From the sequence record PX871048.2: DNA of 43,596 nucleotides, one strand, 5' to 3'. The position numbers were made by a program, and so were the translations under genes. Source of the stretch: a phage. Positions 9,203 to 42,707 of the stretch are shown one piece after another; position 1 is the first letter of the stretch, and each line of letters starts with the position of its first letter. A model generated the notes under the pieces. That model worked only from the letters and a program-made list of their open reading frames with translations. It was not told the origin of the DNA and searched no databases.

Positions 9203-9384
9203 TTCTTACCTTCGCTTTTCTTGAAACTGCGCTTTATATCCGGCGGAGTGTAGCATCGTGAATTTTCGTACTTACCGTCCGAGCTTACCAAAACAAAGCT
9301 GTTGCCGTCTTTTGATATGTACTCGATGGTGAAAGTATTGAATGAATGTACGCTGTATATTTCGTCTCCAACATTAAGTTTCAT
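9199..9384 (-). CDS. hypothetical protein
   Basis: 61-aa ORF, 4-nt overlap with helicase gene. Confidence 0.4.
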   Translation of the reverse strand: MKLNVGDEIYSVHSFNTFTIEYISKDGNSFVLVSSDGKYENSRCYTPPDIKRSFKKSEGKK

Positions 9385-10811
9385 TTCTTACTCCTACGTT
9401 TCATGTAATTAAGCAGCTCTTCCTGTACAGATTTCTTCTCATCTGTACGCGCGGCAACAACCTCGTCCAGCGTGTCTTTAGCAACGATGTGATAGAGAAA
9501 CACCGGGCGCTCGTGGCCTGCCTGTTTCTGGCGGACCGGGCCTATACGCTCGACAACCTGCAAATAGTGCTCAAGGTTCCAGCCTTGCGAGATGAACGCC
9601 AGATGATGTCCGCCATCCTGTAAATTCAAACCATGCCCGGCTGACGCAGGGTGTACGCATAAGATTTCTATTTCGCCGCGGTTCCACGCTTCCATCTGCT
9701 TATTACCCTTAGCACCTTTGGCAAACGCCTGTGCTTGCGGGAATCGTTTAAGGATGCGCTCCAGTTCGTGCTTGAACTGATAGGCTACCAGTAGCGGCGC
9801 GCCCTGTAACTCCTCAACAATTGACTCCAGCGCATCCAGTTTCGTGTCGTGCACTTTCTCCCAGTCTTTTGTCGCTTCTCCGTCTGGTCCCGACACATAT
9901 ACGGCACCGGATGCAATCTGCAAACACTTCGACGTCTTCGCTGCCGCGTTAGCTGCCTCAACTTCTCCGCTCTCCAGTTCCGCAAATAACTTCTCCTCCA
10001 TATCTATGTACGCCTGACGCGCTTTCTTCGGCAGGTCGATTTCAACAGGTACGATAACCGGCGCTTCGCATCCGAACCACTCAGCGGCGTCAATCGTGAG
10101 ACTGATGTCCTTCATCTTCTGGTGGATTTCAGTATCCGCACCCGGGCGGGCGTGGTACTCACGTGCCATAGCCGATTTGCCTTTTTGCACCGAGTTAAAC
10201 CAGCGGTCGGTGAATGCCGTGTACGATGAACCAAGTCGCTCGCCTGCGTCGATAAACCAGTTCTGCCCCCACAGGTCTTTGAGGCCGTTTGGCGACGGCG
10301 TACCTGTCAGGTTAATGAACCGCTTAACCTTGCCGAACGCCACTTTGCTGAGTGCCTTCGCGCGCTTGCTGCCGCCAGAACGGCTACGGAAAGATTTAAG
10401 TTTCGTGCTTTCATCGGCAACGATAACCGTAAAAGGCCAGTCGTCTTTGCCGTAGTAGTCAATCAGCCACTCGATAACTTCGTAGTTCGTACACACTACG
10501 TTAGCATCCGACTCCAGCGCCGCGATGCGGCGCTTCTCTGAACCAGTCGCATCGACGACACGCAGACAAGGGAAGTTCCAACGTGCCTGTTCCGCGGGCC
10601 ACGTACCTGACGCAACACGTAAAGGGGCAAGAATTAACACTCGGTCGTCGTCATTAAGTTGCCCATTACGGAACAGTCGATTGAGAACCCACAACGTTGA
10701 CCCCGACTTGCCGCTGCCCATCGAAGCCCAAATATTACAGCGAGGGTGCCGCAGCATGAACGAAGTCATGAGCTTTTGGTACTCTCGACGGATAAATTTA
10801 GACATAATCAA
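9381..10811 (-). CDS. SF2 (SNF2/DEAD-like) DNA helicase
   Basis: Walker A SMGSGKSGST, Walker B VIVADEST, 476 aa. Confidence 0.75.
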   Translation of the reverse strand: MIMSKFIRREYQKLMTSFMLRHPRCNIWASMGSGKSGSTLWVLNRLFRNGQLNDDDRVLILAPLRVASGTWPAEQARWNFPCLRVVDATGSEKRRIAALESDANVVCTNYEVIEWLIDYYGKDDWPFTVIVADESTKLKSFRSRSGGSKRAKALSKVAFGKVKRFINLTGTPSPNGLKDLWGQNWFIDAGERLGSSYTAFTDRWFNSVQKGKSAMAREYHARPGADTEIHQKMKDISLTIDAAEWFGCEAPVIVPVEIDLPKKARQAYIDMEEKLFAELESGEVEAANAAAKTSKCLQIASGAVYVSGPDGEATKDWEKVHDTKLDALESIVEELQGAPLLVAYQFKHELERILKRFPQAQAFAKGAKGNKQMEAWNRGEIEILCVHPASAGHGLNLQDGGHHLAFISQGWNLEHYLQVVERIGPVRQKQAGHERPVFLYHIVAKDTLDEVVAARTDEKKSVQEELLNYMKRRSKK

Positions 10812-11041: not shown

Positions 11042-11296
11042 TTAGTTAGATAATTCGCCTTGAACTTGCTTAATAAGTTCTCTGGCCGTTGTGAAGTCTA
11101 CGGACAGCCCTTTAGCGACGTCTTCCGCAAGCACCTTGTGGCCAACTGACCCGAAGCCCAGGATACGGTTTACTTCCGAAACCTTCATAGACCATGAGTA
11201 ATTAACTGACGCCCCTGTGTATTTACCGATACGAACAGATGAATCGATTGAACCAATAATCATGGTGTTTACTGACAGTTGAAGTTCGATAGCCAT
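11042..11296 (-). CDS. hypothetical protein
   Basis: 84-aa ORF directly downstream of minus promoter at about 11331-11359. Confidence 0.45.
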   Translation of the reverse strand: MAIELQLSVNTMIIGSIDSSVRIGKYTGASVNYSWSMKVSEVNRILGFGSVGHKVLAEDVAKGLSVDFTTARELIKQVQGELSN

Positions 11297-11297
11297 T

Positions 11298-11612
11298 TTA
11301 TAATTCCTTATATTGTTGAGGTATGTGCTTACTATAATAGTCTGCTATTAGGGTGTCAATCTGTTTTATCGAACCAACGACAAAAACATTCGCGCCACGT
11401 TTACGCATCCGCTCGTGCTCGCGTAACTGGTGTGGGTCTGGCTTCGTGCTTTCATCTTTCTTAACCTCAACGAACCAGATGATGCCGCCGGGGAGGATTA
11501 CCAACAGGTCGGGCGCTCCGTTTCGGCCCTCATACACTATCTTACGAACGAGGCCCCCCAGGGCCTCGAATCGGTCTTTCGCGTATTTCTGTACGCGGCC
11601 CTCTTTAGTCAT
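11298..11612 (-). CDS. VRR-NUC domain nuclease
   Basis: PD-(D/E)XK-like GAPDLLVILPGG..VEVKK motif; start taken at ATG 11612 (MTKEG), coupled to upstream micro-ORF via ATGA. Confidence 0.6.
   Translation of the reverse strand: MTKEGRVQKYAKDRFEALGGLVRKIVYEGRNGAPDLLVILPGGIIWFVEVKKDESTKPDPHQLREHERMRKRGANVFVVGSIKQIDTLIADYYSKHIPQQYKEL
11331..11359 (-). promoter_or_regulatory. sigma70-type promoter, class II (TTGACA-17-TATAGT) with AATAG-N4-CTATT palindrome in spacer
   Basis: minus-strand reading TTGACA CCCTAATAGCAGACTAT TATAGT. Confidence 0.55.
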
Positions 11613-11761
11613 GGGCGTAGAACCCAAGTAAGGAAAGCCCCTCCTAGAACGGCAACACCGACAAACTTAAAGAACAGGCCATAACAGAACATCGTGGCTA
11701 TTCCCGCCCCGAGTAACAGTGCAAGCATGGTTACTATTGCCCAAAATACAAACATTGTCAT
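11609..11761 (-). CDS. small membrane protein (50 aa, two hydrophobic segments)
   Basis: ATGA overlaps at both ends; hydrophobic; below track cutoff. Confidence 0.4.
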   Translation of the reverse strand: MTMFVFWAIVTMLALLLGAGIATMFCYGLFFKFVGVAVLGGAFLTWVLRP

Positions 11762-11847: not shown

Positions 11848-11975
11848 TCCAGCACCCACAGATAAATTGCGATGAACATACCTAATACGGCTACAATCAT
11901 GCCGTATTGGCCCTCGTGACAGTAGACACCGGCGGCAAATCCCGCCAGTACTGTGATAATCAGTTTACTTAGCAT
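11844..11975 (-). CDS. small membrane protein (43 aa)
   Basis: start overlaps last codons of polymerase gene; hydrophobic. Confidence 0.35.
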   Translation of the reverse strand: MLSKLIITVLAGFAAGVYCHEGQYGMIVAVLGMFIAIYLWVLE

Positions 11976-14238
11976 AACGGTACACCTCTCCCCCAGCCCA
12001 TGTTAACGGGAACCCTTCGGCCCACTCAGGTAATGAGCATAGCAGGTCACCCATCTCTTTAACCGTGTACTCTGGCGTGTCTGGCGTTTCGGCAACACAT
12101 TCGTCATGTACGTGGAGTACAATTGGGTAGCCCGCCGCCTCGACCGTCAGGAGTCCGTTAACCAGTAAATCACGGCACAACGCCTGGATGATGTTTTCAC
12201 ACAATTTTCCGCCGTGTGTGTACAAAGTTGTCCACTGGCGGGTGGTCTGATTTTCGCCCTGGTATTTAATGCGAACGTTAGTTGTTACACGCCCGTCCTC
12301 GTCGGTCTCTTTAGTGACGCTTAAGCCTATGCCAGGGTAGGACATGATGCGCCCCGACGGCAGCTCCACGCACAACCACCAACCTGGCACAAAGTTACCT
12401 TGTCTGTCTTTCTCCTTAGTACGCCAGATGCGAATAGCTCTGTCGCCGTTGGGGCGGACTCTGGCCCCCGCCCAAAACTCTCGTCCCGGATTTCTAATTG
12501 CAGCAATCACCGAATCCTTAAGGTCGTTCCAGAATTTCACTGTTTCCGGATGGGCCTCACGCCACATGCGCTTGATAGCATCGCAAGTGCGCCAGACTTC
12601 TTTAGGCAGCACATAAGAGGCCCGTTCATCCTTTTTACCGGGTTTTGGGGGCCGCTTAGCCTCCTGAATCCGCGCCCATTCATAGCCTCGGGCAGTGGCG
12701 GCCCATATATGGTCAGGGAATGTTCCCCGCATTGTCTCCGTCATTTTAAAGAGGTCCAGCCCGTAAGTTTTAGCCATAGTCATGAAGGCCCCCACGCCCC
12801 CCTCGTAGCCGAGGCCGAGCTCGCAACATTTCCCGACCTGTCGCAGGTCTTTACGGGTGGCTTTCAGTTCTATGGGGTCCATACCAAACATCTTGCCCGC
12901 AGTGGCGCAATAAATATCAATCCCCGCGCGGAACGTCTCAAGCGCGGATGTCTCCCCCGCGGTCCAGGCCAACCCGCGCCCTTCTACGTTTGAGTAGTCG
13001 GCAACGAGCAACTTATTACCCTTTTCAGGGATGATGCAACTGCGAACAGTCGAGGCTGTCAGCTTGGATACGTCGAAACGACGGTGCGCCCGACCCTTTA
13101 GCAGCAGATTGATGCCGAACGATAGGGGGTTGAGACGACGGTTCCAGTCTTCGTCGGACTCCCACGGCTGGCGCACAAGTTTCTTTTCCTCGTTAGTCGG
13201 GTCGTCGTGGTAGTACCCGCGCGACAGGTTCTGCGGTTGGAACCCTTTACCCGCAAATCGTAAAGTGCGCTTTGCCCCACCGTACTGGATGCAACCGCGG
13301 CGGCGGCCGTCTTTGGACCGTCCTAGCAGGAGCGGTTTGTATTTTGTCGACGCCGTGGAGGCCGCGCCGAGGCGCATCTCAATGATTGTGCGCGCATCGT
13401 CAGGTAAGTCGTCGTCCTCTAGCAAACCTTCGAGCGTTGCTTTCTGTGCATTATAGATATTGTAGGCCGGTGCCAGCTCCCGAAGGATTGGCAGGAAGTC
13501 TTTACCCGTTAGCTTCCCGCCAAATTTAGCCCTGGCCTCGTTTTTTAGCTCTTGCTTGTGGCGTTCAACTGCTGCTACCGCCGCCTCAGCAAGAGCCGCA
13601 TCAACAAAGAAGCCTCGGTCGTTGATTAACTGGTCAAGTTCAAGTACACGGTCCTCGAAATCGGAGTTACCCCAACGTGGCAGCTTATGGAAGACTTCAC
13701 GCATCGCTGTGATGTCGCTCACGGCATACTTGATGAACAGGGCCCACTCGTCAGGGTGAGTTTCTGCGGTGTAGCGGCGGATTTTGTAGTTCTTCGGCGT
13801 CGGTTTAGAGAAACGCTTAATCAGCGCCTTGCCGCGTTTATCTTTTGCATTGTCGGCGGATACGCCCAGCACTTCGCACAATGCGTCAAGTGACCCCGGC
13901 AGCGCGTGACGAAACGCCCAAATCATCGTATCAATGGTGTTGCTTACCGGAATATCAAAGTCCCAGCAGTGCTTCATGACGAGCCTGTCGAACATTGAGC
14001 CGTTGTGCCACACCATCTTAATACGACTGTTTGGCTTAACCAGGCGGCGCAAGGCGCGATGCAAATCCCCCGGCATGTCGCTGCCGTCAGTGCAGTCCCA
14101 TACCTGAACAGGCTCGTCATCAAAAGCATAGGTGCAGATGAGCACTTCGGTAGTCGGGTGTTCGGCGTAAGCATAGGAGCCGACTTTCTTCAAATCGGCT
14201 TCGGAGAAGGTTTCAAAGTCTAAGAACAGATAACTCAT
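11965..14238 (-). CDS. family A DNA polymerase with 3-prime-5-prime exonuclease domain
   Basis: Exo I motif LDFETFS; polymerase motif A LLVADYSNVEGR, motif B RQVGKCCELGLGYEGG, motif C HVHDE; 757 aa. Confidence 0.9.
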   Translation of the reverse strand: MSYLFLDFETFSEADLKKVGSYAYAEHPTTEVLICTYAFDDEPVQVWDCTDGSDMPGDLHRALRRLVKPNSRIKMVWHNGSMFDRLVMKHCWDFDIPVSNTIDTMIWAFRHALPGSLDALCEVLGVSADNAKDKRGKALIKRFSKPTPKNYKIRRYTAETHPDEWALFIKYAVSDITAMREVFHKLPRWGNSDFEDRVLELDQLINDRGFFVDAALAEAAVAAVERHKQELKNEARAKFGGKLTGKDFLPILRELAPAYNIYNAQKATLEGLLEDDDLPDDARTIIEMRLGAASTASTKYKPLLLGRSKDGRRRGCIQYGGAKRTLRFAGKGFQPQNLSRGYYHDDPTNEEKKLVRQPWESDEDWNRRLNPLSFGINLLLKGRAHRRFDVSKLTASTVRSCIIPEKGNKLLVADYSNVEGRGLAWTAGETSALETFRAGIDIYCATAGKMFGMDPIELKATRKDLRQVGKCCELGLGYEGGVGAFMTMAKTYGLDLFKMTETMRGTFPDHIWAATARGYEWARIQEAKRPPKPGKKDERASYVLPKEVWRTCDAIKRMWREAHPETVKFWNDLKDSVIAAIRNPGREFWAGARVRPNGDRAIRIWRTKEKDRQGNFVPGWWLCVELPSGRIMSYPGIGLSVTKETDEDGRVTTNVRIKYQGENQTTRQWTTLYTHGGKLCENIIQALCRDLLVNGLLTVEAAGYPIVLHVHDECVAETPDTPEYTVKEMGDLLCSLPEWAEGFPLTWAGGEVYRYAK

Positions 14239-14296: not shown

Positions 14297-14929
14297 TTAA
14301 CCACGGCGACGACGTTCGCGGCGCGGTGCTTCATCTTCTTCGTCGTCTTCCAGGTCGTCGGTGCTCGCTACTACACTGGAGCCGCCGAAGCGTTTACCTT
14401 CGCCCATATACTTGATGCCGAGGATGGTAGCGCACAGGTTTTTCCAATCTTTGTGCCACCATAATTCTACAGATACGTTTGCGATACATCCGCTATATAC
14501 CTGCTCGCCTTCTATTTCTTTCCCGTCGATGTTGAAATCAGGCTCGGTTTGTTTTTCACCTTTAGCCGATGTCATAATCACCGGTTGGCGGTTGTTTGTA
14601 GCGCGGAAATACAGACCTTCTTCAAAATCCTCAATCGGATTATCTCGCATTGCCAGGTCACGTACACAGCACTTGTCCGCGTGGTGGTCTACGCCGTAGT
14701 TGGCCTTCATCCATTTTTCAGCCGCAGCGGTCCCGATCGCCTCTGTTACAACTTCCAGTGCGGTGTCGTAAAGCGCGTCGATTTGAGGGTGGTCAGGCTG
14801 CATAAGAACCGTAACCTGGTATTTGCCTTTAATCAGTTTACCGGTTTTCTTGTCCTCAGAGTCGGCAGCACGTTCAAATACGTTAACCCATGCAGTGTTT
14901 ACTCTACGCAGATTCAGTTTAATACCCAT
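14297..14929 (-). CDS. ssDNA-binding protein-like (DUF2815-type) with acidic C-terminal tail
   Basis: 210 aa, C-terminus DDLEDDEEDEAP; usual neighbour of Cas4-like exonuclease and PolA in phage replication modules. Confidence 0.55.
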   Translation of the reverse strand: MGIKLNLRRVNTAWVNVFERAADSEDKKTGKLIKGKYQVTVLMQPDHPQIDALYDTALEVVTEAIGTAAAEKWMKANYGVDHHADKCCVRDLAMRDNPIEDFEEGLYFRATNNRQPVIMTSAKGEKQTEPDFNIDGKEIEGEQVYSGCIANVSVELWWHKDWKNLCATILGIKYMGEGKRFGGSSVVASTDDLEDDEEDEAPRRERRRRG

Positions 14930-14987: not shown

Positions 14988-15016
14988 AATATAATAGCTA
15001 ACTATTCAGGTGTCAA
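14988..15016 (-). promoter_or_regulatory. sigma70-type promoter, class II (TTGACA-17-TATATT) with AATAG-N4-CTATT palindrome
   Basis: minus-strand reading TTGACA CCTGAATAGTTAGCTAT TATATT; leader contains hairpin CCGGGAACTGCCCGG. Confidence 0.55.
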
Positions 15017-17512: not shown

Positions 17513-17543
17513 TATTTATTCTCCTCTCGTTTGGTATGTGCCA

Positions 17544-17572
17544 ACTATAATAGCGAACTATTCACTTGTCAA
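17544..17572 (-). promoter_or_regulatory. sigma70-type promoter, class II (TTGACA-17-TATAGT) with AATAG-N4-CTATT palindrome
   Basis: minus-strand reading TTGACA AGTGAATAGTTCGCTAT TATAGT; divergent from HTH regulator gene. Confidence 0.6.
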
Positions 17573-17591
17573 TGGGCTTTTCTAAAATAAT

Positions 17592-17605
17592 TAATATGGT
17601 ACTAT
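17592..17605 (+). promoter_or_regulatory. imperfect operator copy (AATAT-GGTA-CTATT) overlapping -10 TACTAT upstream of HTH gene
   Basis: shares TACTATTCA core with class I promoters; weak -35. Confidence 0.4.
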
Positions 17606-17636
17606 TCACATATCAACTAACTAAGGAGTAATTGAC

Positions 17637-17852
17637 ATGCAACCATCTGAACTAGGCATCCGTGTAGAACAGCGCCGTAAAGAACTCGGTATCTCTCAGC
17701 GCCGTCTGGCGGTCCTGACCGGGGTTTCCCAGGGCGCAATTAACCAGCTTGCGCTCGGTGTAACTCAGGACGTCCGCCCGGCGACGCTGTTTAAACTGGC
17801 GGAAGTGCTGCAAGTAGACGCCAAGTGGCTGGCGTTCGGTGAAGGGGCTTAA
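17637..17852 (+). CDS. XRE-family (Cro/CI-type) helix-turn-helix transcriptional regulator
   Basis: 71 aa, LGISQRRLAVLTGVSQGAINQLALG HTH signature; RBS AAGGAG; divergent from replication operon. Confidence 0.8.
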   Translation: MQPSELGIRVEQRRKELGISQRRLAVLTGVSQGAINQLALGVTQDVRPATLFKLAEVLQVDAKWLAFGEGA

Positions 17853-17868
17853 CGCCCCTTTCTTTTTA
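17841..17868 (+). terminator. rho-independent terminator (AGGGGC-TTAAC-GCCCCT plus T-run)
   Basis: hairpin spanning stop codon followed by TTTCTTTTT. Confidence 0.65.
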
Positions 17869-17869
17869 C

Positions 17870-20137
17870 CTATTCCAAATCCTCCTCTGTCACTATCAGC
17901 ATTTCATTCGGCTCGTATATTGTCTTCGGAATCTTGTTATCCGTTATCCTGGTATTAAGCCTGTAACGACCAGGGATTATCTGATTGTTTTCGTCAGTAC
18001 CCGGAACAAGATACCCGGCCTCGACCATTTTCTTAATCTTCCCTCGCTCTATGGCTTCTTTGGAGTTAAACGCCTTCGCATTGGGGTCGGACTGTGCGAG
18101 CTTATTTGCGGCGGCTACCGTGATACCTTCGTTGCCGTTGTAGGTTCCTTCCGCCAGTTCAAACGCGGCCAGTATCGTGGCCTCGGAACTGTTGACGGCG
18201 TTCTCTACGGTTTTACGTACGTTTTCTTTACCTTCCTTTGTTAGCCCTTCTTCGCGCTCTTTTTCCTCGTCGGTTTTGAACGGTTCGAAACCCCACGGCA
18301 TCAGCACAAGCGCCTTGTGTGGTTCAGGCAGGTCGAGGTTTACTATTGTGCCGTATTCCTCTGTGCTACCGAGGAACTCAACAGCGCGGTACTCTTTCGG
18401 CGGCGGCGCTTCACGGAACTGTACCGACTCAAGCACCATACCAACCGTCTTCTGTTGAGGCCCGTGCTTAAATTTCGAGTGGTATACGTTTATCTGGCGG
18501 TCGGTCGCGCGTTCAATTGTCAGTTCCACGTCGACGCCAGCATACAGCGCCCCACTACCACGGGCTTTCTTTCCACCCTTCGGCGTATGGTGAACAACGC
18601 CTACCGCGGCTTTAGTCGCGTCACGCACTTCTTTCAGGATGGCGATAACTTTACCCATGCCGATTGCCGTTGATGAGCTGTTCTCGTCGAACTTATCAAT
18701 AGTCAGTGCCAGGGTCTGGTTGAGGGTGTCAAACGCGACCATGCCAATTGGCTCGTCGCCAGCAGTTTCGCGCATTAACTTAATCAGGCTCTTCAGTTTG
18801 CCGACTTCGCCCATATCGATGACATGTACGTAATCTTTACCCTCTGCGCCGTATTTAGCAGCGAGCGCGTCAATACGTGTACGTGTGGCCGCGCCGCCCT
18901 CACCGTCGATATAGAAGTGGTGGCAACGCTGCGTATCAGCTCCCGCAAACCGGTATCCTGCGGCGCTAAGGTACATCATCCCCAGTGTATAAAACGATTT
19001 GTACGTGCCAGATTCCCCGACGATATCCCAGATACAATCTGATGGCATGTACCCTTCAACGACGAAATCAGCCTTTACCGGTTCCGGTAACTCATCCTCC
19101 TCTGAGTCCTCGTCGTCTTCCAGGTCGTCGAGGCTGCATGAAACTGATTCACGCGCGCCCCAGCCAATTGCCTCAGCGACTTCACTGAACGGCAGCCCAG
19201 TCGCATCGCACGCATACTTCCACACCTCTTTCGGTGACATGCCTTCGGTTGCCGTAATGTCGGTGTCGTGAATCATGGTTACGTTAGGCGCTTCATATCC
19301 TTCGCGTGGGAAGCACAGCAGGAAGTCGTCCGGGCGCGGGGTAGGGTCACTGTAGTTTTCGGCGTGTTCTGGTGTGGCTGGCATTTTCAGGCCGCGGGGC
19401 GTCAGGACTCCGCCGTACTCGAACGCCAGTGCTTCGAACGCATCAGTAAACGCTGTGCGCAGTTCTTCCGGTATCTGGTAGTCAGATGCGCTGCTCACCT
19501 CGTAATCCGGGGTGCCTTCCAGTAACTCGTCCGGGTCAATCAGGTCGTTGCGGCGCGACCAGATAACGGTAGCGCCGACAGGAGGCAGGTACATCGGCTG
19601 GGACAGGGTAAAACCGCTGCGGTCGGCGCCCATGCCCTTGAAGAAGTGCTCCAGCAGACCGTGGCGGACGCGGATGATATCACCGCCTTCTACCGGGCGC
19701 GCCAGCGGCATGACGACACGGAAACGCGGCGATTCGTCAGTGTGCGATGCCGTAGTGTACAGGCACAACGCTACACGACTGCGCTTAACCAGACGCACAG
19801 CCTCCTGATACTCTTCCGGTGTTGCGCTGTCGAAGTCCAGATACGCCAGCGACGATTCGCTTACAGACGCGTCACAACGGTAGAAGAAGCCTTTACGCGC
19901 TTGCTTAAAGTCACCGGTTTCCGGGTCTTTTACGGTGCTGTGCGTTGAGTCGCACGCGGCGGTAATGTAGCCCGGCGCGGTCTTTGGGTTAATCCCGTCA
20001 CGAACAGCATCTAGCGGCTGGATTAACTCTTTCAGGTCGTCCAGTGTTGCCGTGTGCGTGGTTCTGACGTTTATATCCTTTTTCTCCGCCCGCGCGTTGC
20101 GACGAGACCATGAATAGGATAAAATTACATCGGACAT
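17870..20137 (-). CDS. DNA primase / replicative helicase (primase-polymerase-like N-terminus, RecA-like ATPase C-terminus)
   Basis: 755 aa; Walker A-like GESGTYKS; RBS GAAGGAA. Confidence 0.65.
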   Translation of the reverse strand: MSDVILSYSWSRRNARAEKKDINVRTTHTATLDDLKELIQPLDAVRDGINPKTAPGYITAACDSTHSTVKDPETGDFKQARKGFFYRCDASVSESSLAYLDFDSATPEEYQEAVRLVKRSRVALCLYTTASHTDESPRFRVVMPLARPVEGGDIIRVRHGLLEHFFKGMGADRSGFTLSQPMYLPPVGATVIWSRRNDLIDPDELLEGTPDYEVSSASDYQIPEELRTAFTDAFEALAFEYGGVLTPRGLKMPATPEHAENYSDPTPRPDDFLLCFPREGYEAPNVTMIHDTDITATEGMSPKEVWKYACDATGLPFSEVAEAIGWGARESVSCSLDDLEDDEDSEEDELPEPVKADFVVEGYMPSDCIWDIVGESGTYKSFYTLGMMYLSAAGYRFAGADTQRCHHFYIDGEGGAATRTRIDALAAKYGAEGKDYVHVIDMGEVGKLKSLIKLMRETAGDEPIGMVAFDTLNQTLALTIDKFDENSSSTAIGMGKVIAILKEVRDATKAAVGVVHHTPKGGKKARGSGALYAGVDVELTIERATDRQINVYHSKFKHGPQQKTVGMVLESVQFREAPPPKEYRAVEFLGSTEEYGTIVNLDLPEPHKALVLMPWGFEPFKTDEEKEREEGLTKEGKENVRKTVENAVNSSEATILAAFELAEGTYNGNEGITVAAANKLAQSDPNAKAFNSKEAIERGKIKKMVEAGYLVPGTDENNQIIPGRYRLNTRITDNKIPKTIYEPNEMLIVTEEDLE

Positions 20138-20195: not shown

Positions 20196-20486
20196 TTAAC
20201 GTTTAGCCAGACATTCCATTAAATGTGAATATTTTCTGTAATAGCAAGGAACTAAATCACACCCAAAATAATGATAAACATAAGCCAAGTGGTCAGTAAC
20301 ATCTATAGCGGCTGACATTGTGCTAAGACGGCGAAGGCTAATCAACTGTAATTCTTCCGTAATGCAAAATGGTTCATACGTATCAAGTTTGCAAGAAACG
20401 TTAAAACACAGAGCATAGCCGTCTTGTGCGGAGTAGACCAGAAATGCGCTGTCGTTCTCTTTATCGTGAAAAATTACACCTTTCAT
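20196..20486 (-). CDS. hypothetical protein
   Basis: 96-aa ORF, ATGA-coupled to upstream HTH gene. Confidence 0.45.
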   Translation of the reverse strand: MKGVIFHDKENDSAFLVYSAQDGYALCFNVSCKLDTYEPFCITEELQLISLRRLSTMSAAIDVTDHLAYVYHYFGCDLVPCYYRKYSHLMECLAKR

Positions 20487-20653
20487 TTCACATTCTCCTT
20501 AACCCACGCTTCTACTTTATTTCGGTCAAACGTACCCGGCATACGGCGGCCCATTACTTTAACGCTGCAATCAGGAAACTTCCCGCTTTTAATCCAGTTA
20601 TTTATTGTCTGACGAGTAACTCCGATTAATTCTGCAACCTCGTTTATAGTCAT
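20483..20653 (-). CDS. AlpA/excisionase-like HTH DNA-binding protein
   Basis: MTINEVAELIGVTRQTINNWIKSGKFP; start set at ATG 20653 with AGGAG RBS (track start 20743 rejected). Confidence 0.55.
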   Translation of the reverse strand: MTINEVAELIGVTRQTINNWIKSGKFPDCSVKVMGRRMPGTFDRNKVEAWVKENVK

Positions 20654-20758
20654 TTCACGATCTCCTGTGTAAGATGTAGTGAAGTATAAAGCGGTAACTT
20701 TGTAAAAGCAACCAAAACAACACACAAAGCCACTAAGATACAAAAGATGCTACTGGGA

Positions 20759-20787
20759 TTGACTTTTACTTAAAAATGTGCTAAGCT
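20759..20787 (+). promoter_or_regulatory. promoter TTGACT-17-TGnTAAGCT (extended -10) driving structured element A
   Basis: same hexamers, spacing and TGn as the promoter at about 33037-33065. Confidence 0.45.
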
Positions 20788-20891
20788 TCACTGAGCTTGT
20801 GAGATATCGCAAGCGACCGCGGAGCGGCAGGGAACGCAACGCGTGCCATTAGGCACTTGAGTGTAGTTCCGCTGGCGCTTTCGGAAGGGCC
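20782..20891 (+). ncRNA. candidate structured RNA element A (paralog of 33060-33168)
   Basis: about 75 percent identical to copy B with conserved blocks GAGCTTGTGA, AAGCGACCGCGG, TTCGGAAGGGCC and a covarying hairpin GTGCC-ATTA-GGCAC vs GGAC-GTAA-GTCC; no ORF. Confidence 0.35.
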
Positions 20892-21066
20892 AAAGTCTAT
20901 TGTTAATCCCGCCTAAATACCCAAGTCACTGATAATTAAAGTTTCTATAGTTGCCGTAAGCGAGGTAGAGAGTACTTCACTCCGCTGTGGTGGGCTAACG
21001 CCCACCCACTGCGTTGCGTACTCTTTTAAGAAACGAAAGAATCACAACGGCAACGTAACTATTCTC

Positions 21067-21095
21067 TTGCACACCCCAACATAATAGGATACTAT
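21067..21095 (+). promoter_or_regulatory. sigma70-type promoter, class I (TTGCAC-17-TACTAT) with AATAG-N4-CTATT palindrome over -10
   Basis: TTGCAC ACCCCAACATAATAGGA TACTAT; identical 33-mer at 42676-42707 on minus. Confidence 0.65.
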
Positions 21096-21129
21096 TCACT
21101 TATCGAAACGAGACAGAGGAGTGAGGGTT

Positions 21130-21321
21130 ATGTTTAAAAAGGGTCAGTTGGTTAAAAGTGCCGACGGTAAACACGGCATAATTGAATTAAAATCATCTTT
21201 ATTTCCCGGGCAGTACGTAGTGACTGTGCAAAAGGTGAGAGGTGTAAATTCGAAAACATACGTAGCAGAGAGGAACTTAGAACTCATCGGCAACAATTTT
21301 AAATTCAAAGGGGCGAAGTGA
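21130..21321 (+). CDS. hypothetical early protein
   Basis: ATG with GAGGAG RBS; 63 aa. Confidence 0.5.
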   Translation: MFKKGQLVKSADGKHGIIELKSSLFPGQYVVTVQKVRGVNSKTYVAERNLELIGNNFKFKGAK

Positions 21322-22057: not shown

Positions 22058-22099
22058 TGTTATATTGTAACAATAGTTTGGGATTTTACTGAGTGACTT

Positions 22100-22130
22100 A
22101 CGCTGCTACACAGCAGCGTATCATTTTTCT
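22100..22130 (+). terminator. rho-independent terminator (ACGCTGCT-ACAC-AGCAGCGT plus T-run)
   Basis: 8-bp stem then TCATTTTTCTCATTTTT. Confidence 0.6.
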
Positions 22131-22371: not shown

Positions 22372-22400
22372 TTGCACACACAGATATAATAGACTACTAT
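22372..22400 (+). promoter_or_regulatory. sigma70-type promoter, class I (TTGCAC-17-TACTAT) with palindrome
   Basis: TTGCAC ACACAGATATAATAGAC TACTAT; leader begins ATCGAAACGAGAGGAG. Confidence 0.65.
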
Positions 22401-22429
22401 TCAGTTATCGAAACGAGAGGAGAGAGAAG

Positions 22430-25402: not shown

Positions 25403-25475
25403 CCAATTGACACCTAAGACTAATCCGACGATACTTAAATCACCTCCTGTTCTATCCCTCTGCTCTCCAGTTTTA

Positions 25476-25509
25476 TCCCGGCCCTGACCCAGCCGGGATT
25501 TTTTTTATC
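25476..25509 (+). terminator. second rho-independent terminator (CCCGGC..GCCGGG plus T9)
   Basis: tandem to previous terminator. Confidence 0.75.
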
Positions 25510-25528
25510 CATTTTCTGCTATGACTAG

Positions 25529-25557
25529 TTGACTATTACCCTCGACCCTATTATATT
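25529..25557 (+). promoter_or_regulatory. sigma70-type promoter TTGACT-17-TATATT
   Basis: consensus-like hexamers; leader begins ATCGACAACGAGA like the leaders at 21067 and 22372. Confidence 0.55.
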
Positions 25558-30903: not shown

Positions 30904-30936
30904 AGAAAAAGGCCCCTTAAGGGGCCTTAGTTTTAT
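30904..30936. terminator. bidirectional terminator (perfect palindrome AAGGCCCCTTAAGGGGCCTT flanked by A/T runs)
   Basis: serves + portal gene and convergent minus moron gene. Confidence 0.7.
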
Positions 30937-31178
30937 CGCACTCTCATAAATAGCTTACCTTTGCGTTGCAACAAATCCATACCGACAGCACCTTCGCCAG
31001 ATTTGTTCGGACGGCGCATTAAACTAAAGTTCCATACTCTAGCTTTTGAAGCATCTTTCGCATTGCACACCCAAAGTCTACCATTTTCTCTTAGGTCAAA
31101 TAAGTCCGATATACTGAGATTATTAACCGGTATGAAACCGCCAATGAACTCACGTTCGCAACTAGGTAATTCCTGCAT
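30933..31178 (-). CDS. moron-like hypothetical protein (81 aa) antisense within late module
   Basis: own class I promoter and AGGAGGG RBS, own terminator. Confidence 0.5.
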   Translation of the reverse strand: MQELPSCEREFIGGFIPVNNLSISDLFDLRENGRLWVCNAKDASKARVWNFSLMRRPNKSGEGAVGMDLLQRKGKLFMRVR

Positions 31179-31203
31179 ACACCCTCCTGTTTAAGTTAAC
31201 TGA

Positions 31204-31232
31204 ATAGTACCCTATTATATTGGTGTCTGCAA
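31204..31232 (-). promoter_or_regulatory. sigma70-type promoter, class I variant (TTGCAG-17-TACTAT) with palindrome
   Basis: minus-strand reading TTGCAG ACACCAATATAATAGGG TACTAT. Confidence 0.6.
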
Positions 31233-32915: not shown

Positions 32916-32941
32916 AACCACCTCCACTAGGCATTTACTGA

Positions 32942-32970
32942 ATAGTACGCTATTATGTTGGGGTGTGCAA
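32942..32970 (-). promoter_or_regulatory. sigma70-type promoter, class I (TTGCAC-17-TACTAT) with palindrome
   Basis: minus-strand reading TTGCAC ACCCCAACATAATAGCG TACTAT. Confidence 0.65.
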
Positions 32971-33022: not shown

Positions 33023-33038
33023 AACTATTCGAATAGTT
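33023..33038. promoter_or_regulatory. perfect 16-bp palindrome AACTATTCGAATAGTT (reversed half-site order) overlapping -35 of element B promoter
   Basis: exact inverted repeat. Confidence 0.5.
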
Positions 33039-33065
33039 GACTTTTCACTAAAAATATGATAAGCT
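33037..33065 (+). promoter_or_regulatory. promoter TTGACT-17-TGnTAAGCT driving structured element B
   Basis: same architecture as 20759-20787. Confidence 0.45.
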
Positions 33066-33168
33066 CCACCTGAGCTTGTGAAGTATGAACAAGCGACCGC
33101 GGCGCGGGCAGGTAACGGAGCGGGACGTAAGTCCTGAGTGTAGTTACGCTGACGCGTTCGGAAGGGCC
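33060..33168 (+). ncRNA. candidate structured RNA element B (paralog of 20782-20891)
   Basis: conserved blocks and compensatory stem changes relative to copy A; no ORF. Confidence 0.35.
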
Positions 33169-33243
33169 GTACCCTATTGCTTGTGTAAAAAGTAACTGGT
33201 TTACTGAGATTACGCCGTTTCTATGTTTAAATGATAAGGACTA

Positions 33244-33272
33244 GCGCCCCGCTTTATGGCGGGGCTTTACTT
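33244..33272 (+). terminator. rho-independent terminator (GCGCCCCGC-TTTATG-GCGGGGC plus T-rich)
   Basis: hairpin between element B and spanin start. Confidence 0.55.
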
Positions 33273-33289
33273 ATCGAGAAAGGAGAAAC

Positions 33290-33676
33290 ATGAATCTTAA
33301 AGCAACTGTCGTAGCGGGGGCATGTTTCATCATCCTGGCTTACGCACACGGCATCTACCAGTACCGCAGCGGCTGGAACGAAGGCCGGGCTAATCTAGCT
33401 TCACAGCAACAGCGGAAAGCACAGACCGAGTTAGCGAAGAAAACACAACGGCAGCAGCAGGACGAATCGAAGGCCGCGGCCGCTGACAACGAAGGCAAGA
33501 CGAAATCAGAGGTAATTACCCGTGAAGTCGTTAAGTACATTAAAACGCCTGGCCGCAGCGTGTGCACTTTCGACGATGCTCGCGTCCTGCTCAAGTCCCG
33601 CGCCGTCACCAACGCCAATTCCATCCCCGGATACGACAATGATGCAGCCGCCGTGCAAGCTGGCACCGCCAAGTAG
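33290..33676 (+). CDS. i-spanin (Rz-like)
   Basis: N-terminal TM (ATVVAGACFIILAYAHGIY), Q/K/E-rich periplasmic segment, overlapping lipoprotein gene in +1 frame; RBS AGGAG. Confidence 0.65.
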   Translation: MNLKATVVAGACFIILAYAHGIYQYRSGWNEGRANLASQQQRKAQTELAKKTQRQQQDESKAAAADNEGKTKSEVITREVVKYIKTPGRSVCTFDDARVLLKSRAVTNANSIPGYDNDAAAVQAGTAK

Positions 33677-40056: not shown

Positions 40057-40263
40057 TCACTCACTTTTGAATGGCATTTCGTAGAAGTTAGTTAACTGAC
40101 CTCTGTCACTCCGTTCTGTCATCTCTTTTGTCGCCTCTTCCTTGCTACCTACGGCGTAAATATCAACCCACTCATCCCATTCTTCGTCATATACGCGGAT
40201 AACGTATATTGCCCCCATTGTGCCTTCACGCATTTGGGTAAATCCCCAGGATTCTATTGGCAA
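40057..40263 (-). CDS. hypothetical acidic protein (start uncertain)
   Basis: 68-aa ORF, last gene of minus island. Confidence 0.4.
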   Translation of the reverse strand: MPIESWGFTQMREGTMGAIYVIRVYDEEWDEWVDIYAVGSKEEATKEMTERSDRGQLTNFYEMPFKSE

Positions 40264-40795
40264 CCGTGGCCGCGGTTAATGTAATCTCACCAGGAATGAT
40301 GGCGACGTCATGGCATACTACCCCATCAATATCGTACAGGTAGCCACGGCTATCCCCGTCAAACGTGTAGCCGTCTCGGTGCAAGCGGACGATTCGCACG
40401 TCATGCCCAGCGGCGACGATAGGGGCAACTTCACTGGCAAACCCACCGTCGGACACCACAAAAACTTCGTCGCCGTCAGGCAAGTTTTCAGCGAGATACT
40501 TACCGAAATAATCATTGCCAAGTACAGGCTTAATGAATTGCTCCGAGATAGCAATCATGAACTGACGTCGCGACAACCCATTAAGGAAACATTCTGGCTT
40601 TTCTTTCCGTGCCCGGTCGTCGTAGCCGTCGAGAAATTCGTGGTAAGCATCCGGGCCTAACGCTGCCCGAGCAATATTGAACATTGGATTCTTGAAACTG
40701 GTAGTTCCTTTCGCAAAGCCCATTTCTACCATCGCCATAGCAAGCGTGTCTTTCCCGCAACCCGCAGGGCCATTAAGGATAATTACCTTAGCCAT
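40226..40795 (-). CDS. P-loop nucleotide kinase, dNMP kinase-like
   Basis: Walker A LNGPAGCGKDT and VSDGGFASE..VRIVRLHRDG resemble T4 gene 1-type dNMP kinase; from memory. Confidence 0.55.
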   Translation of the reverse strand: MAKVIILNGPAGCGKDTLAMAMVEMGFAKGTTSFKNPMFNIARAALGPDAYHEFLDGYDDRARKEKPECFLNGLSRRQFMIAISEQFIKPVLGNDYFGKYLAENLPDGDEVFVVSDGGFASEVAPIVAAGHDVRIVRLHRDGYTFDGDSRGYLYDIDGVVCHDVAIIPGEITLTAATVANRILGIYPNA

Positions 40796-41280
40796 TATTT
40801 ATTGCTCCCGTGTGATTTTAAGTGTGTAGAGTTCCCGTTACAGTCGTATTCAGTAACCGCGTGCGTAGTGACTCCTAAGCCGCGGAAATGCTTAATCACC
40901 GCGGGCGAGTCGTCGAATGCGCACAATATTCTCTCCAGCCCGATAGCACGCAACACCTCTTCTTTAATTACGATGTCTTTTCTGTTGTCGTGTTTGCTGC
41001 GCATGATTAGCTGATAAAATTCGACGCGGTGGCGCTGCAGCCACATTCTGGTTTCTTTTTCTGCATCATCACTGCGGCCCGTTAAAATAATAACGGCATA
41101 GCGACGATTAAGGGCGTTACACAGTTCGATGTTATCTTTAATGGGCGCGTCATCTTTGCAGGCCATGTTAAAAGGCTTCCACGCCCATGTTTCGTTGTAG
41201 TTATCTTTCGGTAGCAGGTGTAAACGATGAGTACCGTCCGCCAATGTCCCGTCTAAATCGAAAATCACAATATCTTTCAT
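40795..41280 (-). CDS. HAD-superfamily phosphatase
   Basis: N-terminal FDLDGTL motif plus downstream ILTGR and FDD motifs. Confidence 0.6.
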   Translation of the reverse strand: MKDIVIFDLDGTLADGTHRLHLLPKDNYNETWAWKPFNMACKDDAPIKDNIELCNALNRRYAVIILTGRSDDAEKETRMWLQRHRVEFYQLIMRSKHDNRKDIVIKEEVLRAIGLERILCAFDDSPAVIKHFRGLGVTTHAVTEYDCNGNSTHLKSHGSNK

Positions 41281-42407
41281 CCCAGCATCTCCGGTGAAAT
41301 AGTTAAACGTGCAACCTCACCATATTCGGCGCTATAAGTAATTACATTTGCACTGCGCCCTGACATCCAACCGCCGCGTGAGGCATAGGCGTCTTTAGCC
41401 GCTAAGGTTCGGTGTTGCTCAACAATCATGTTACGGCTTTCTACAATCTTCTGATGGTGCAGGTGGCCTACGTGGGCGTAGCTGTAAACACTCTCTCCGA
41501 ACGCTTTGCGGAACTTAGCAATCATTACCGGTTCGATAGCGTCGAATCGTGCTTTATGCCCGTGATGGAAGAACAGCGTCGTTTTGCCGTGTTGCACCAT
41601 CTTGTAAACATCCGGCGACGTATCGACGAACACACGAGGCTCATTGTCGTACAGCGTGCTGAACATCTCAGCCAGCCAAATCATTCCGCTTTCGTCGTGG
41701 TTCCCTTGCACGATAAGCAAGCGAACATTTTTATGCTTAACGAGTGCCATATCAACAACACGGCGGACCATACGAATCATGTAGCGGACCAGTTTCTGAT
41801 AGCGCGTGTCCGCGTCAAGAACATGACCACTCGCTGGCGTAACCGCATCCAGGCTATCGAAGTGTGCAAGGTCACCTAGCAGATTAATAACACCCGTTCC
41901 TGCATCCGGCGCTTTCTGAAACGCAGCATCGAACCAGCGAGAGAACAGGTCTTCCGCAATCTTCATATCCCAGTCGTCGCCGCTCTCGTCGGCCCAGGCC
42001 AGCATACCGAGATGGAAATCAGACACAGTGTAAAGGTTGAGTAGTTTATCGTCGCGTTTAGCGCGGGCGGCTTTAACAGGCGCAACTGGCGTAATCTCTG
42101 ACTTCATGCCTTCGATTACGGCTTTCATCAACTCGACCTGACGTTCGGCGTCAGTGTCTGTCTTAACCCATTGCAACTTAGTGTTGCCGGACTCATCCAC
42201 CAGGGACGACGTCCCTTTAATCTTGTAGCCGTCAGGAACAAGGTGACTAACGTCACGCCCGTGACCCACGCCTTTCTTGGCCAGCTTCGCTTTACGGATA
42301 CGAATAACGCGGTCTGAGATGCCGTATTTACGGGCAATGTCGATATTCTTCATCCCGGCGTTCAATTCTTCCTGTAACTGTTCGTCGGTTATTTTCTTCC
42401 GGGCCAT
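41277..42407 (-). CDS. calcineurin-like metallophosphoesterase with N-terminal HTH
   Basis: DFHLG, GDLAHFD, GNHD, HHGH, GHLHH motifs; N-terminus IDIARKYGISDRVIRIRK. Confidence 0.6.
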   Translation of the reverse strand: MARKKITDEQLQEELNAGMKNIDIARKYGISDRVIRIRKAKLAKKGVGHGRDVSHLVPDGYKIKGTSSLVDESGNTKLQWVKTDTDAERQVELMKAVIEGMKSEITPVAPVKAARAKRDDKLLNLYTVSDFHLGMLAWADESGDDWDMKIAEDLFSRWFDAAFQKAPDAGTGVINLLGDLAHFDSLDAVTPASGHVLDADTRYQKLVRYMIRMVRRVVDMALVKHKNVRLLIVQGNHDESGMIWLAEMFSTLYDNEPRVFVDTSPDVYKMVQHGKTTLFFHHGHKARFDAIEPVMIAKFRKAFGESVYSYAHVGHLHHQKIVESRNMIVEQHRTLAAKDAYASRGGWMSGRSANVITYSAEYGEVARLTISPEMLG

Positions 42408-42445
42408 GCTTATGTCCTCATGTGTAGGATTTGTCCTATACTAGC

Positions 42446-42637
42446 TTACTTCTCGTTAACATTCGAGTTGCAAGCCCAGATTAAAATAAAGACCCACGGC
42501 AGCAGAGCCCAGCCAAGAAACAGGTTAGCCATGAATATTGCCAACTTCGCTTTATGGCCACGCATATGGGCTACTAAAAACGGGATAAAATAAACTAAAA
42601 CGATAATGATTAAGAAGAACATAGTAATGCCAGTCAT
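42446..42637 (-). CDS. superinfection-immunity-like small membrane protein
   Basis: YFIPFLVAHMRGHKAKLAIFMANLFLGWALLPW matches the conserved pattern of Imm-type proteins; RBS CAGGAG; own promoter. Confidence 0.55.
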   Translation of the reverse strand: MTGITMFFLIIIVLVYFIPFLVAHMRGHKAKLAIFMANLFLGWALLPWVFILIWACNSNVNEK

Positions 42638-42675: not shown

Positions 42676-42707
42676 TGAATAGTATCCTATTATGTTGGGG
42701 TGTGCAA
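42676..42707 (-). promoter_or_regulatory. sigma70-type promoter, class I (TTGCAC-17-TACTAT), identical 33-mer to promoter at 21067
   Basis: minus-strand reading TTGCACACCCCAACATAATAGGATACTATTCAC. Confidence 0.65.

Follow-up and report, generated by a model that had tools for sequence, protein, structure and literature searches.

Which protein reads a 14-bp palindrome that recurs in the promoters of a virulent phage, and to what effect? The question arises at positions 17538-17640 of sequence record PX871048.2, a phage DNA of 43,596 nucleotides analysed here over its whole length (the window), where the palindrome AATAG-N4-CTATT (AATAGNNNNCTATT) lies just upstream of a gene for a 71-residue XRE/434-Cro-like protein. 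The window represents the whole or nearly the whole genome of a Kagunavirus (Guernseyvirinae). Across the replication region it shares about 92% identity with Escherichia phage AV104, and it is related also to K1G and more remotely to the Salmonella Jerseyviruses. Kagunaviruses are virulent siphoviruses with E. coli hosts. Together with Jerseyviruses they are common candidates for phage therapy and biocontrol, and their gene regulation is essentially unstudied: nothing experimental was found in the literature on Kagunavirus or Jerseyvirus transcription or on a Cro-like protein in a virulent phage. The annotations of the relatives AV104, K1G and SETP13 include neither an RNA polymerase or sigma factor nor an integrase or CI repressor. 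Our analysis makes it likely that the palindrome is the operator of the 434-Cro-like protein, whose binding as a dimer would exclude the host sigma-70 RNA polymerase from the promoter. Promoter architecture, conservation, protein family and the association of homologues with operators were computed; from these we infer dimer binding, repression, transcript starts and the timing and order of events.

The palindrome and its promoters

The window contains eight exact matches to AATAG-N4-CTATT (11336, 14993, 17549, 21083, 22388, 31203, 32941 and 42678), against a mean of 0.05 in dinucleotide shuffles, none of 100 of which reached eight. When all 5-Nx-5 palindromes are counted without bias, none is more over-represented in the window, and this one ranks first in the same count in AV104 (7 copies) and K1G (6 copies). 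All eight exact sites lie within predicted promoters of sigma-70 type, in agreement with the sequence-only reading of this DNA, which had placed the palindrome in at least eight promoters. Allowing one mismatch adds four matches (6297, 17593, 25524 and 33032), where about one is expected by chance; three of them (17593, 25524 and 33032) fall in promoters, and the remaining one, inside a tail gene, is probably a chance match. The palindrome thus sits in no fewer than eight host-type promoters, and probably in eleven. Nor does it occur at similar density inside coding regions, the contrary outcome that the sequence-only reading had considered: in AV104, where intergenic DNA makes up 6.7% of the genome, five of the seven sites are fully intergenic, another overlaps the last 5 nt of a coding sequence and the last lies in the 3' end of one.

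The promoters fall into three architectures. Class I promoters (TTGCAC/TTGCAG-17-TACTAT; 21067-21095 and 22372-22400 on the plus strand, 31232-31204, 32970-32942 and 42707-42679 on the minus strand) have in common a long block, TTGCACACCCCAACAT followed by the palindrome, which spans approximately -19 to -6 and so takes in the -10 hexamer together with the half of the spacer next to it. Its right half-site supplies the CTAT of the -10 TACTAT, so that the central four bases are always NNTA. Class II promoters (TTGACA-17-TATAGT/TATATT; 17572-17544, 15016-14988 and 11359-11331, all on the minus strand) match 11 of 12 consensus bases and carry the palindrome at approximately -25 to -12, nearly all of it in the spacer, its last T being the first base of the -10. 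These two classes had been proposed from the sequence alone, and both are found at the positions given for them, with registers revised here; the 6-bp shift of the palindrome between them was correctly described, and the supposed overlap of the class I palindrome with the -10 holds, whereas that with the start site does not, as the palindrome ends near -6. Class III, added here, has the palindrome centred on a -35 TTGACT, at approximately -40 to -27, with one mismatch at each of its two sites (25524 and 33032); the central TTGA and the CT of the right half-site together make up the hexamer. The palindrome hence occurs in three registers, each overlapping the -10 or the -35 of predicted promoters. 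Promoters that lack it include the predicted HTH_17/primase promoter and the first of two TTGACT-17-TAAGCT promoters. The eleven promoter-borne sites are as follows.

17549-17562, dyad: O1, exact (AATAGCGAACTATT), in the spacer of a leftward class II promoter with -35 at 17572-17567 and -10 at 17549-17544
17593-17606, plus strand: O2, one mismatch (AATATGGTACTATT), overlapping the predicted promoter of the 71-residue regulator gene itself
14993-15006, promoter on minus strand: exact, class II, -35 at 15016-15011 and -10 at 14993-14988; exact in 34 of 36 flank-anchored orthologues
11336-11349, promoter on minus strand: exact, class II, -35 at 11359-11354 and -10 at 11336-11331, in the 3' end of open reading frame (ORF) 11298-11627
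21083-21096, plus strand: exact, class I, -35 TTGCAC at 21067-21072 and -10 TACTAT at 21090-21095; exact in 41 of 41 flank-anchored orthologues
22388-22401, plus strand: exact, class I, -35 at 22372-22377 and -10 at 22395-22400; exact in 28 of 31 orthologues
31203-31216, minus strand: exact, class I, -35 TTGCAG at 31232-31227 and -10 at 31209-31204
32941-32954, minus strand: exact, class I, -35 at 32970-32965 and -10 at 32947-32942
42678-42691, minus strand: exact, class I, -35 at 42707-42702 and -10 at 42684-42679
25524-25537, plus strand: class III near-operator, one mismatch (ACTAGTTGACTATT), on the -35 of TTGACT-17-TATATT (25529-25557)
33032-33045, plus strand: class III near-operator, one mismatch (AATAGTTGACTTTT), on the -35 of TTGACT-17-TAAGCT (33037-33065)

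The genes downstream belong to diverse parts of the genome. The class II promoter at 14993 drives the genes for an Enc34-type single-stranded DNA (ssDNA)-binding protein (14297-14929) and DNA polymerase (11965-14238), and that at 11336 drives 11042-11296 and a helicase gene (9381-10811). Rightward, the promoter at 21083 heads the first operon of small genes (ATG at 21130) and that at 22388 a second one, which reaches the holin and endolysin genes. The three leftward class I promoters drive an 81-residue gene of unknown function amid the structural gene block (30933-31178, from 31203), an ORF for a 31-residue hydrophobic peptide (32915-32820, from 32941) and, from 42678, a superinfection-immunity gene (42446-42637) followed by genes at 40226-42407 for a repair exonuclease/phosphatase, a polynucleotide kinase and a kinase. 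This last operon (40226-42637, minus strand), with its immunity protein, metallophosphatase/repair exonuclease, polynucleotide kinase and nucleotide kinase-like protein, is reminiscent of RNA/DNA-end repair against host nucleases. The class III promoter at 25524 lies upstream of a block of small genes and terminase, and from the one at 33032 a structured leader RNA would be transcribed ahead of the late genes. Operator quality is graded over this set, being perfect at early and replication promoters and imperfect at the regulator's own promoter and those of the late region.

Conservation was examined in about 40 Kagunavirus contigs, in which orthologous promoters were located by their flanks and not by the palindrome. 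Both half-sites are exact at 140 of 145 flank-anchored orthologous sites, with four to seven different central tetranucleotides per site. An alignment of the regulator upstream region from 38 unique Kagunavirus sequences shows both half-sites of O1 invariant and its central 4 bp variable, and the DNA separating O1 from the -35 differs among them in sequence and length. O2 is likewise invariant across Kagunaviruses, apart from central-base changes in two contigs (L037 and L044). The 25524 site is kept in Kagunavirus and takes the form AATAGTTGACTAGT in Jerseyvirus, with the mismatch in the opposite half-site. The Jerseyvirus SETP13 has six exact palindromes, or seven when read as TAATA-N6-TATTA. 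In Cornellvirus the strict palindrome is missing; a looser form, AWTAS-N4-STAWT, occurs at five sites against 0.44 expected, one of them in the phage's own XRE-divergent region. Two other Cornellvirus palindromes were rejected as replacement operators, CGCTA-N4-TAGCG because its copies lie inside structural genes and GAATA-N3-TATTC because it is not promoter-linked. At 22072-22085 several relatives carry an exact palindrome (for example AATAGGTTACTATT) after tandem GGTGTAACAGG repeats and just upstream of a terminator (22099-22120), with no convincing -35; in the window this site has decayed to AATAGTTTGGGATT, with two mismatches. It may be a roadblock or a weak promoter.

Sigma-70 reads no bases in the spacer. 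As judged from sequence, the palindrome is a cis-element separate from the core promoter hexamers, since it occurs in three registers, lies in the spacer in class II, has dyad symmetry and keeps its half-sites invariant while centre and flanks vary. Activation of MerR type through the class II spacer site was rejected, because that spacer already has the optimal 17 bp between consensus hexamers, and so was a role as an RNA hairpin, because transcription is predicted to start downstream of the sites.

The adjacent gene and its homologues

The most likely reader of the palindrome appears to be the small 434-Cro-like protein encoded beside one of the sites.

17637-17852, plus strand: gene for the 71-residue XRE/434-Cro-like helix-turn-helix (HTH) protein, the proposed repressor (Pfam HTH_3, E 1.1e-12)

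Its best sequence match in the protein data bank (PDB) is 434 Cro, likewise of 71 residues (E 1.9e-6). The AlphaFold2 (AF2) model (predicted local distance difference test, pLDDT, 77) has five helices, with 2cro as top fold match (template modelling (TM) scores 0.73/0.78), followed by the 434 and P22 repressor domains, SinR and controller proteins of restriction-modification (R-M) systems. Operators of 434 Cro and CI are 14-bp dyads of 5-N4-5 layout, with conserved outer and variable central bases. Just upstream of the gene, the 17538-17640 region holds one exact site (17549-17562) and one with a single mismatch (17593-17606), matching the full and degenerate sites that had been described there. 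T5 and G6 of O2, followed by TACTAT, form an extended -10, TGgTACTAT (17597-17605), to which we assign the predicted regulator promoter; this has no good -35. That the mismatched T and the next G contribute to the extended -10 would explain why an imperfect half-site is invariant. An exact and a weaker site flanking the regulator promoter would be as expected for autoregulation.

Because a protein homologue search returned only close relatives (77-97% identity), distant homologues were taken from pattern scans of IMG/VR. This gave 31 loci outside Guernseyvirinae, retrieved by protein alone, of which 320 nt upstream were examined. The pattern A[AT]TAG-N4-CTA[AT]T occurs 17 times in these upstream regions, against 0-3 times for each of the other gaps from 0 to 9. 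Each of the 13 loci with a QGLI[GSA]Q recognition helix has it, the palindromes there taking the form ATTAG-N4-CTAAT or AATAG-N4-CTAAT, and so does one locus with QGAITQ (L065). Other helix variants are accompanied by related 5-N4-5 palindromes (AATAC/ATTAC-N4, AATAG-N4-GTATT and ATAAG-N4-CTTAT). These distant homologues are CI-type repressors of 150-260 residues with a divergent cro-like gene. The related palindromes across helix variants argue that this XRE clade reads operators of 5-N4-5 geometry, with AATAG within its predicted range.

Closer to the window, the HTH segment GVSQGAINQLALGVTQDVR is invariant among Kagunavirus-like homologues that are just 77-80% identical overall, and L044, which encodes such a divergent protein, retains five exact sites. 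An XRE alignment scan of a bacterial genome collection gave a single locus (L066, NZ_JACVEL010000022.1), a Jerseyvirus-type copy of 49% identity on an 18.9-kb scaffold of a Taishania pollutisoli (Bacteroidota) assembly, which is probably phage contamination.

An intrinsic terminator lies 3' of the regulator gene (17841-17861), with a T-run on the plus strand only. The gene and that of the primase-helicase, which ends with its stop at 17870, are convergent. With the T-run on one strand, leftward transcription from the operator-less HTH_17/primase promoter may read through, antisense to the regulator gene, and this may act as a delay mechanism.

Proposed repression and competing explanations

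In the circuit that we propose, the 17637-17852 product would bind the 14-bp dyad as a dimer. Since the operator is interleaved with a core hexamer in every case, bound protein and host sigma-70 RNA polymerase would be mutually exclusive. The regulator would be made from its own extended -10 promoter, which bears the weaker, one-mismatch operator, and the accumulating protein would turn down the eight promoters with perfect operators. These would be three near-consensus replication and recombination promoters (serving the genes for helicase, exonuclease, DNA polymerase and ssDNA-binding protein), two operons of small early genes, read rightward and continuing to the lysis genes, and three leftward accessory units antisense in the late/structural region (the 81-residue protein, the 31-residue hydrophobic peptide, and the superinfection-immunity and repair/kinase operon). 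At higher protein levels, O2 at the regulator's own promoter and the two class III sites, all imperfect, would fill last. The earlier suggestion of a single repressor operator in many promoters, with the adjacent XRE gene as its source, is supported by all computational tests run.

Several observations weigh against this assignment. The homologue test comprises few independent lineages, namely one prophage-like contig family, L065 and Guernseyvirinae. The Jerseyvirus XRE orthologue is about 50% identical, and its helix (QSLITHL) is nearer to that of Cornellvirus (QSAISHL) than to that of Kagunavirus (QGAINQL); despite this likeness, the exact palindrome is common to Kagunavirus and Jerseyvirus and not shared by Cornellvirus. 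A simple code relating recognition helix to operator across the three genera was rejected, as the helices do not sort that way. No binding, footprint, transcript-start or expression data for these phages were found in the searchable literature, and the model would have to account for how the phage avoids shutting itself down too early. A further difficulty comes from a second small DNA-binding protein.

20483-20653, minus strand: gene for a 56-residue HTH_17 (excisionase/AlpA-type) protein, the rival binder (Pfam HTH_17, E 2e-9)

For this protein, 'excisionase' is a family name only. Both genera that have the strict palindrome conserve it, Kagunavirus at 62-100% and Jerseyvirus at about 77%, and no homologue of it is detectable in two Cornellvirus genomes, which lack the strict palindrome; the XRE recognition helices do not track the motif over the three genera. 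That the palindrome is bound by the HTH_17 product, or by another, unrecognised small phage protein, nevertheless seems unlikely to us. A Kagunavirus contig (L040) has no HTH_17 gene and yet carries six exact palindromes within +/-10 kb, and HTH_17 alleles of this genus can be as little as 62% identical, with no change in the half-sites. The gene's own predicted promoter (TTGCTT-17-TATACT, approximately 20716-20688) bears no palindrome, and XRE homologues elsewhere have near-identical palindromes without any HTH_17 link. Excisionase-type winged helices, moreover, usually bind direct repeats as monomers, not 14-bp dyads. An AlpA/Q-type antiterminator was also considered for this protein; such a factor has an N-terminal extension that contacts RNA polymerase, a binding element inside a promoter between -35 and -10, and a terminator further down that is bypassed. 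In the window protein the HTH_17 domain fills all 56 residues, which would leave no such extension if the ATG at 20653, preceded by a ribosome-binding site, is the start. In L040 (IMGVR_UViG_3300045988_014597, 12559-13144) the slot of the HTH_17 gene and a 95-residue ORF is a variable cassette with a 47-residue zinc-ribbon-like ORF and a 149-residue ORF, the latter without Pfam match; HTH_17 alleles elsewhere fall into discrete identity classes (100/96, 86, 77 and 62%).

The motif has one published mention, which links it to an RNA polymerase apparently not encoded by these phages. A PHIRE consensus, tgAATAGTa-ccTATTat-T, present in seven copies in the Kagunavirus fBC-Eco01, was read as the promoters of a phage-encoded RNA polymerase, and the same paper names two HTH proteins that it does not connect to the motif (PMC9825357). 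This consensus is the same element as ours; the difference lies in the reading, since here the element is dyad-symmetric and nested in sigma-70 promoters. The long block common to class I promoters would also suit a phage-specific promoter, whether for a phage polymerase or a modified host one, or a shared promoter sequence spread by duplication, with no binding protein of its own. We regard all of these as very improbable. Neither a polymerase nor a sigma gene is annotated in AV104, K1G or SETP13, and the sites are symmetric and sit within ordinary sigma-70 -35/-10 pairs of 17-bp spacing, three of which match 11 of 12 consensus bases. The registers of the palindrome against these hexamers are three in number, dyad symmetry is not required of a promoter, and the half-sites are conserved where adjacent spacer bases vary. 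The chance that a host DNA-binding protein is exploited by the phage is in our estimate equally slight: nothing speaks directly for it, although the motif is common to phages of E. coli (Kagunavirus) and Salmonella (Jerseyvirus), hosts that share most transcription factors. Cornellviruses also infect Salmonella yet lack the strict motif, in unrelated contigs the motif family goes together with a protein family that phages encode, and we know of no enterobacterial regulator with this consensus. Finally, the XRE protein might bind as proposed but serve mainly in dosage compensation, superinfection immunity or activation at some sites rather than in an early-to-late switch. The near-consensus class II promoters would be very strong on multi-copy templates, the operator is common to Kagunavirus and Jerseyvirus, so that cross-repression is conceivable, and the two promoters heading late-region transcription also have imperfect sites; the overlap with a core hexamer in each of the three registers speaks against activation, and we give such a main role little weight.

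Repression by the 71-residue protein remains the preferred explanation. If it is true, one 71-residue protein and a 14-bp site would explain how most promoters are controlled in a virulent phage that has neither a polymerase nor a sigma factor of its own, and would clearly exemplify the reuse of a Cro-type domain in a setting other than a lysogeny switch. The pair would also constitute a compact, orthogonal repressor-operator system, with promoters that carry the operator in three positions, useful for phage engineering and synthetic circuits.

Leader RNAs and known systems

Two paralogous non-coding elements on the plus strand (20759-20914 and 33037-33191) consist of a TTGACT-17-TAAGCT promoter and, directly after it, a conserved structured RNA (20788-20914 and 33066-33191; about 105-125 nt). 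With a covariance model of this leader RNA, 25 copies are detected among contigs of Kagunavirus and Jerseyvirus; the consensus has 30 pairs, with 96.8% of cells paired and 7 pairs showing compensatory changes, and its covariation score is 0.256 against 0.110 in shuffles, slid controls being far lower. The late-region copy is present in all four full genomes checked and the early-region copy in some Kagunaviruses only. Nowhere in the window does an Rfam family match at the gathering threshold, with just noise in 20740-21080 at E up to 1. After the late-region leader, a terminator-like hairpin (33245-33275; GCCCCGC-TTTAT-GGCGGGGC and TTTACTTAT) stands directly before the late-gene ATG at 33290; after the early leader, another (20990-21015; GTGGGC-TAAC-GCCCAC) precedes the class I promoter at 21067. 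This layout of promoter, leader and terminator resembles lambda PR'-tR', and the RNAs may be put-like cis-acting antitermination leaders or a small RNA. Elsewhere, a strong promoter-like TTGACA-17-GATACT (25407-25435) is followed about 50 nt on by a strong intrinsic terminator (CCCGGC..GCCGGG and T8, approximately 25479-25510), which would limit the transcript to about 70 nt, within the interval from the endolysin gene to the class III promoter.

A wider scheme, which is possible but rather doubtful, is that Guernseyvirinae run their temporal programme on unmodified host RNA polymerase by means of two devices, a Cro-like repressor with graded operators at about 11 promoters and the two leader RNAs (20788-20914 and 33066-33191), which would act like HK022 put RNAs to carry transcription through terminators into the early and late operons. 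The repressor might in addition give cross-immunity between co-infecting virulent phages, which is conceivable because the operator is common to Kagunavirus and Jerseyvirus.

Comparison with known regulators places the proposed pair closest to 434. R-M controller proteins such as C.AhdI and C.BclI, which are among the fold matches of the AF2 model, are also small HTH_3 proteins. They bind palindromic boxes over their own promoter and time expression after entry into a new cell; unlike what is proposed for the window protein, their action is local, on a single operon, and includes activation besides repression. Dispersed operators for one repressor have precedents in P1 C1 and in mycobacteriophage L5 gp71 with its 'stoperators', where many scattered, asymmetric sites serve many transcription units in lysogeny. 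Those proteins are unrelated to the present one, whose candidate sites are symmetric, embedded in promoters and carried by a virulent phage. Nearer relatives are the CI-type repressors of the prophage-like IMG/VR contigs L067-L079 (helix GVSQGLIGQIE), with an HTH domain 40-45% identical and the same 5-N4-5 geometry. Their operators, ATTAG-N4-CTAAT in the cI-cro intergenic region, match four of the five half-site bases, with some reading AATAG-N4-CTAAT, and lie 30-90 nt upstream of the gene. Those repressors, however, have 150-260 residues with a C-terminal domain, a divergent cro-like gene and classical immunity regions, whereas the window protein is a DNA-binding domain alone with sites genome-wide.

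By every sequence feature tested, the pair would be a repressor-operator pair of 434-Cro type. It shares with 434 Cro a length of 71 residues, the five-helix HTH_3 fold and a 14-bp dyad with the outer 5 bp conserved and the central 4 variable, laid over the -10 or -35 of predicted promoters, including one in the regulator's own region; as in 434, the recognition helix starts with a conserved Gln where the operator has an A at position 1. It differs in its half-site (AATAG versus ACAAG/ACAAT) and in having no CI partner, tripartite OR or lysogeny genes in annotated relatives. Since there is no CI and no lysogeny module, the stand-alone 71-residue HTH protein, in a lineage with neither integrase nor CI annotated in AV104, K1G and SETP13, would not be part of a CI/Cro immunity switch. 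It differs also in its 8-11 operators over the whole genome, in three promoter registers, in a virulent phage. The kind of switch is thus familiar, and it is the breadth of its apparent deployment that is unusual.

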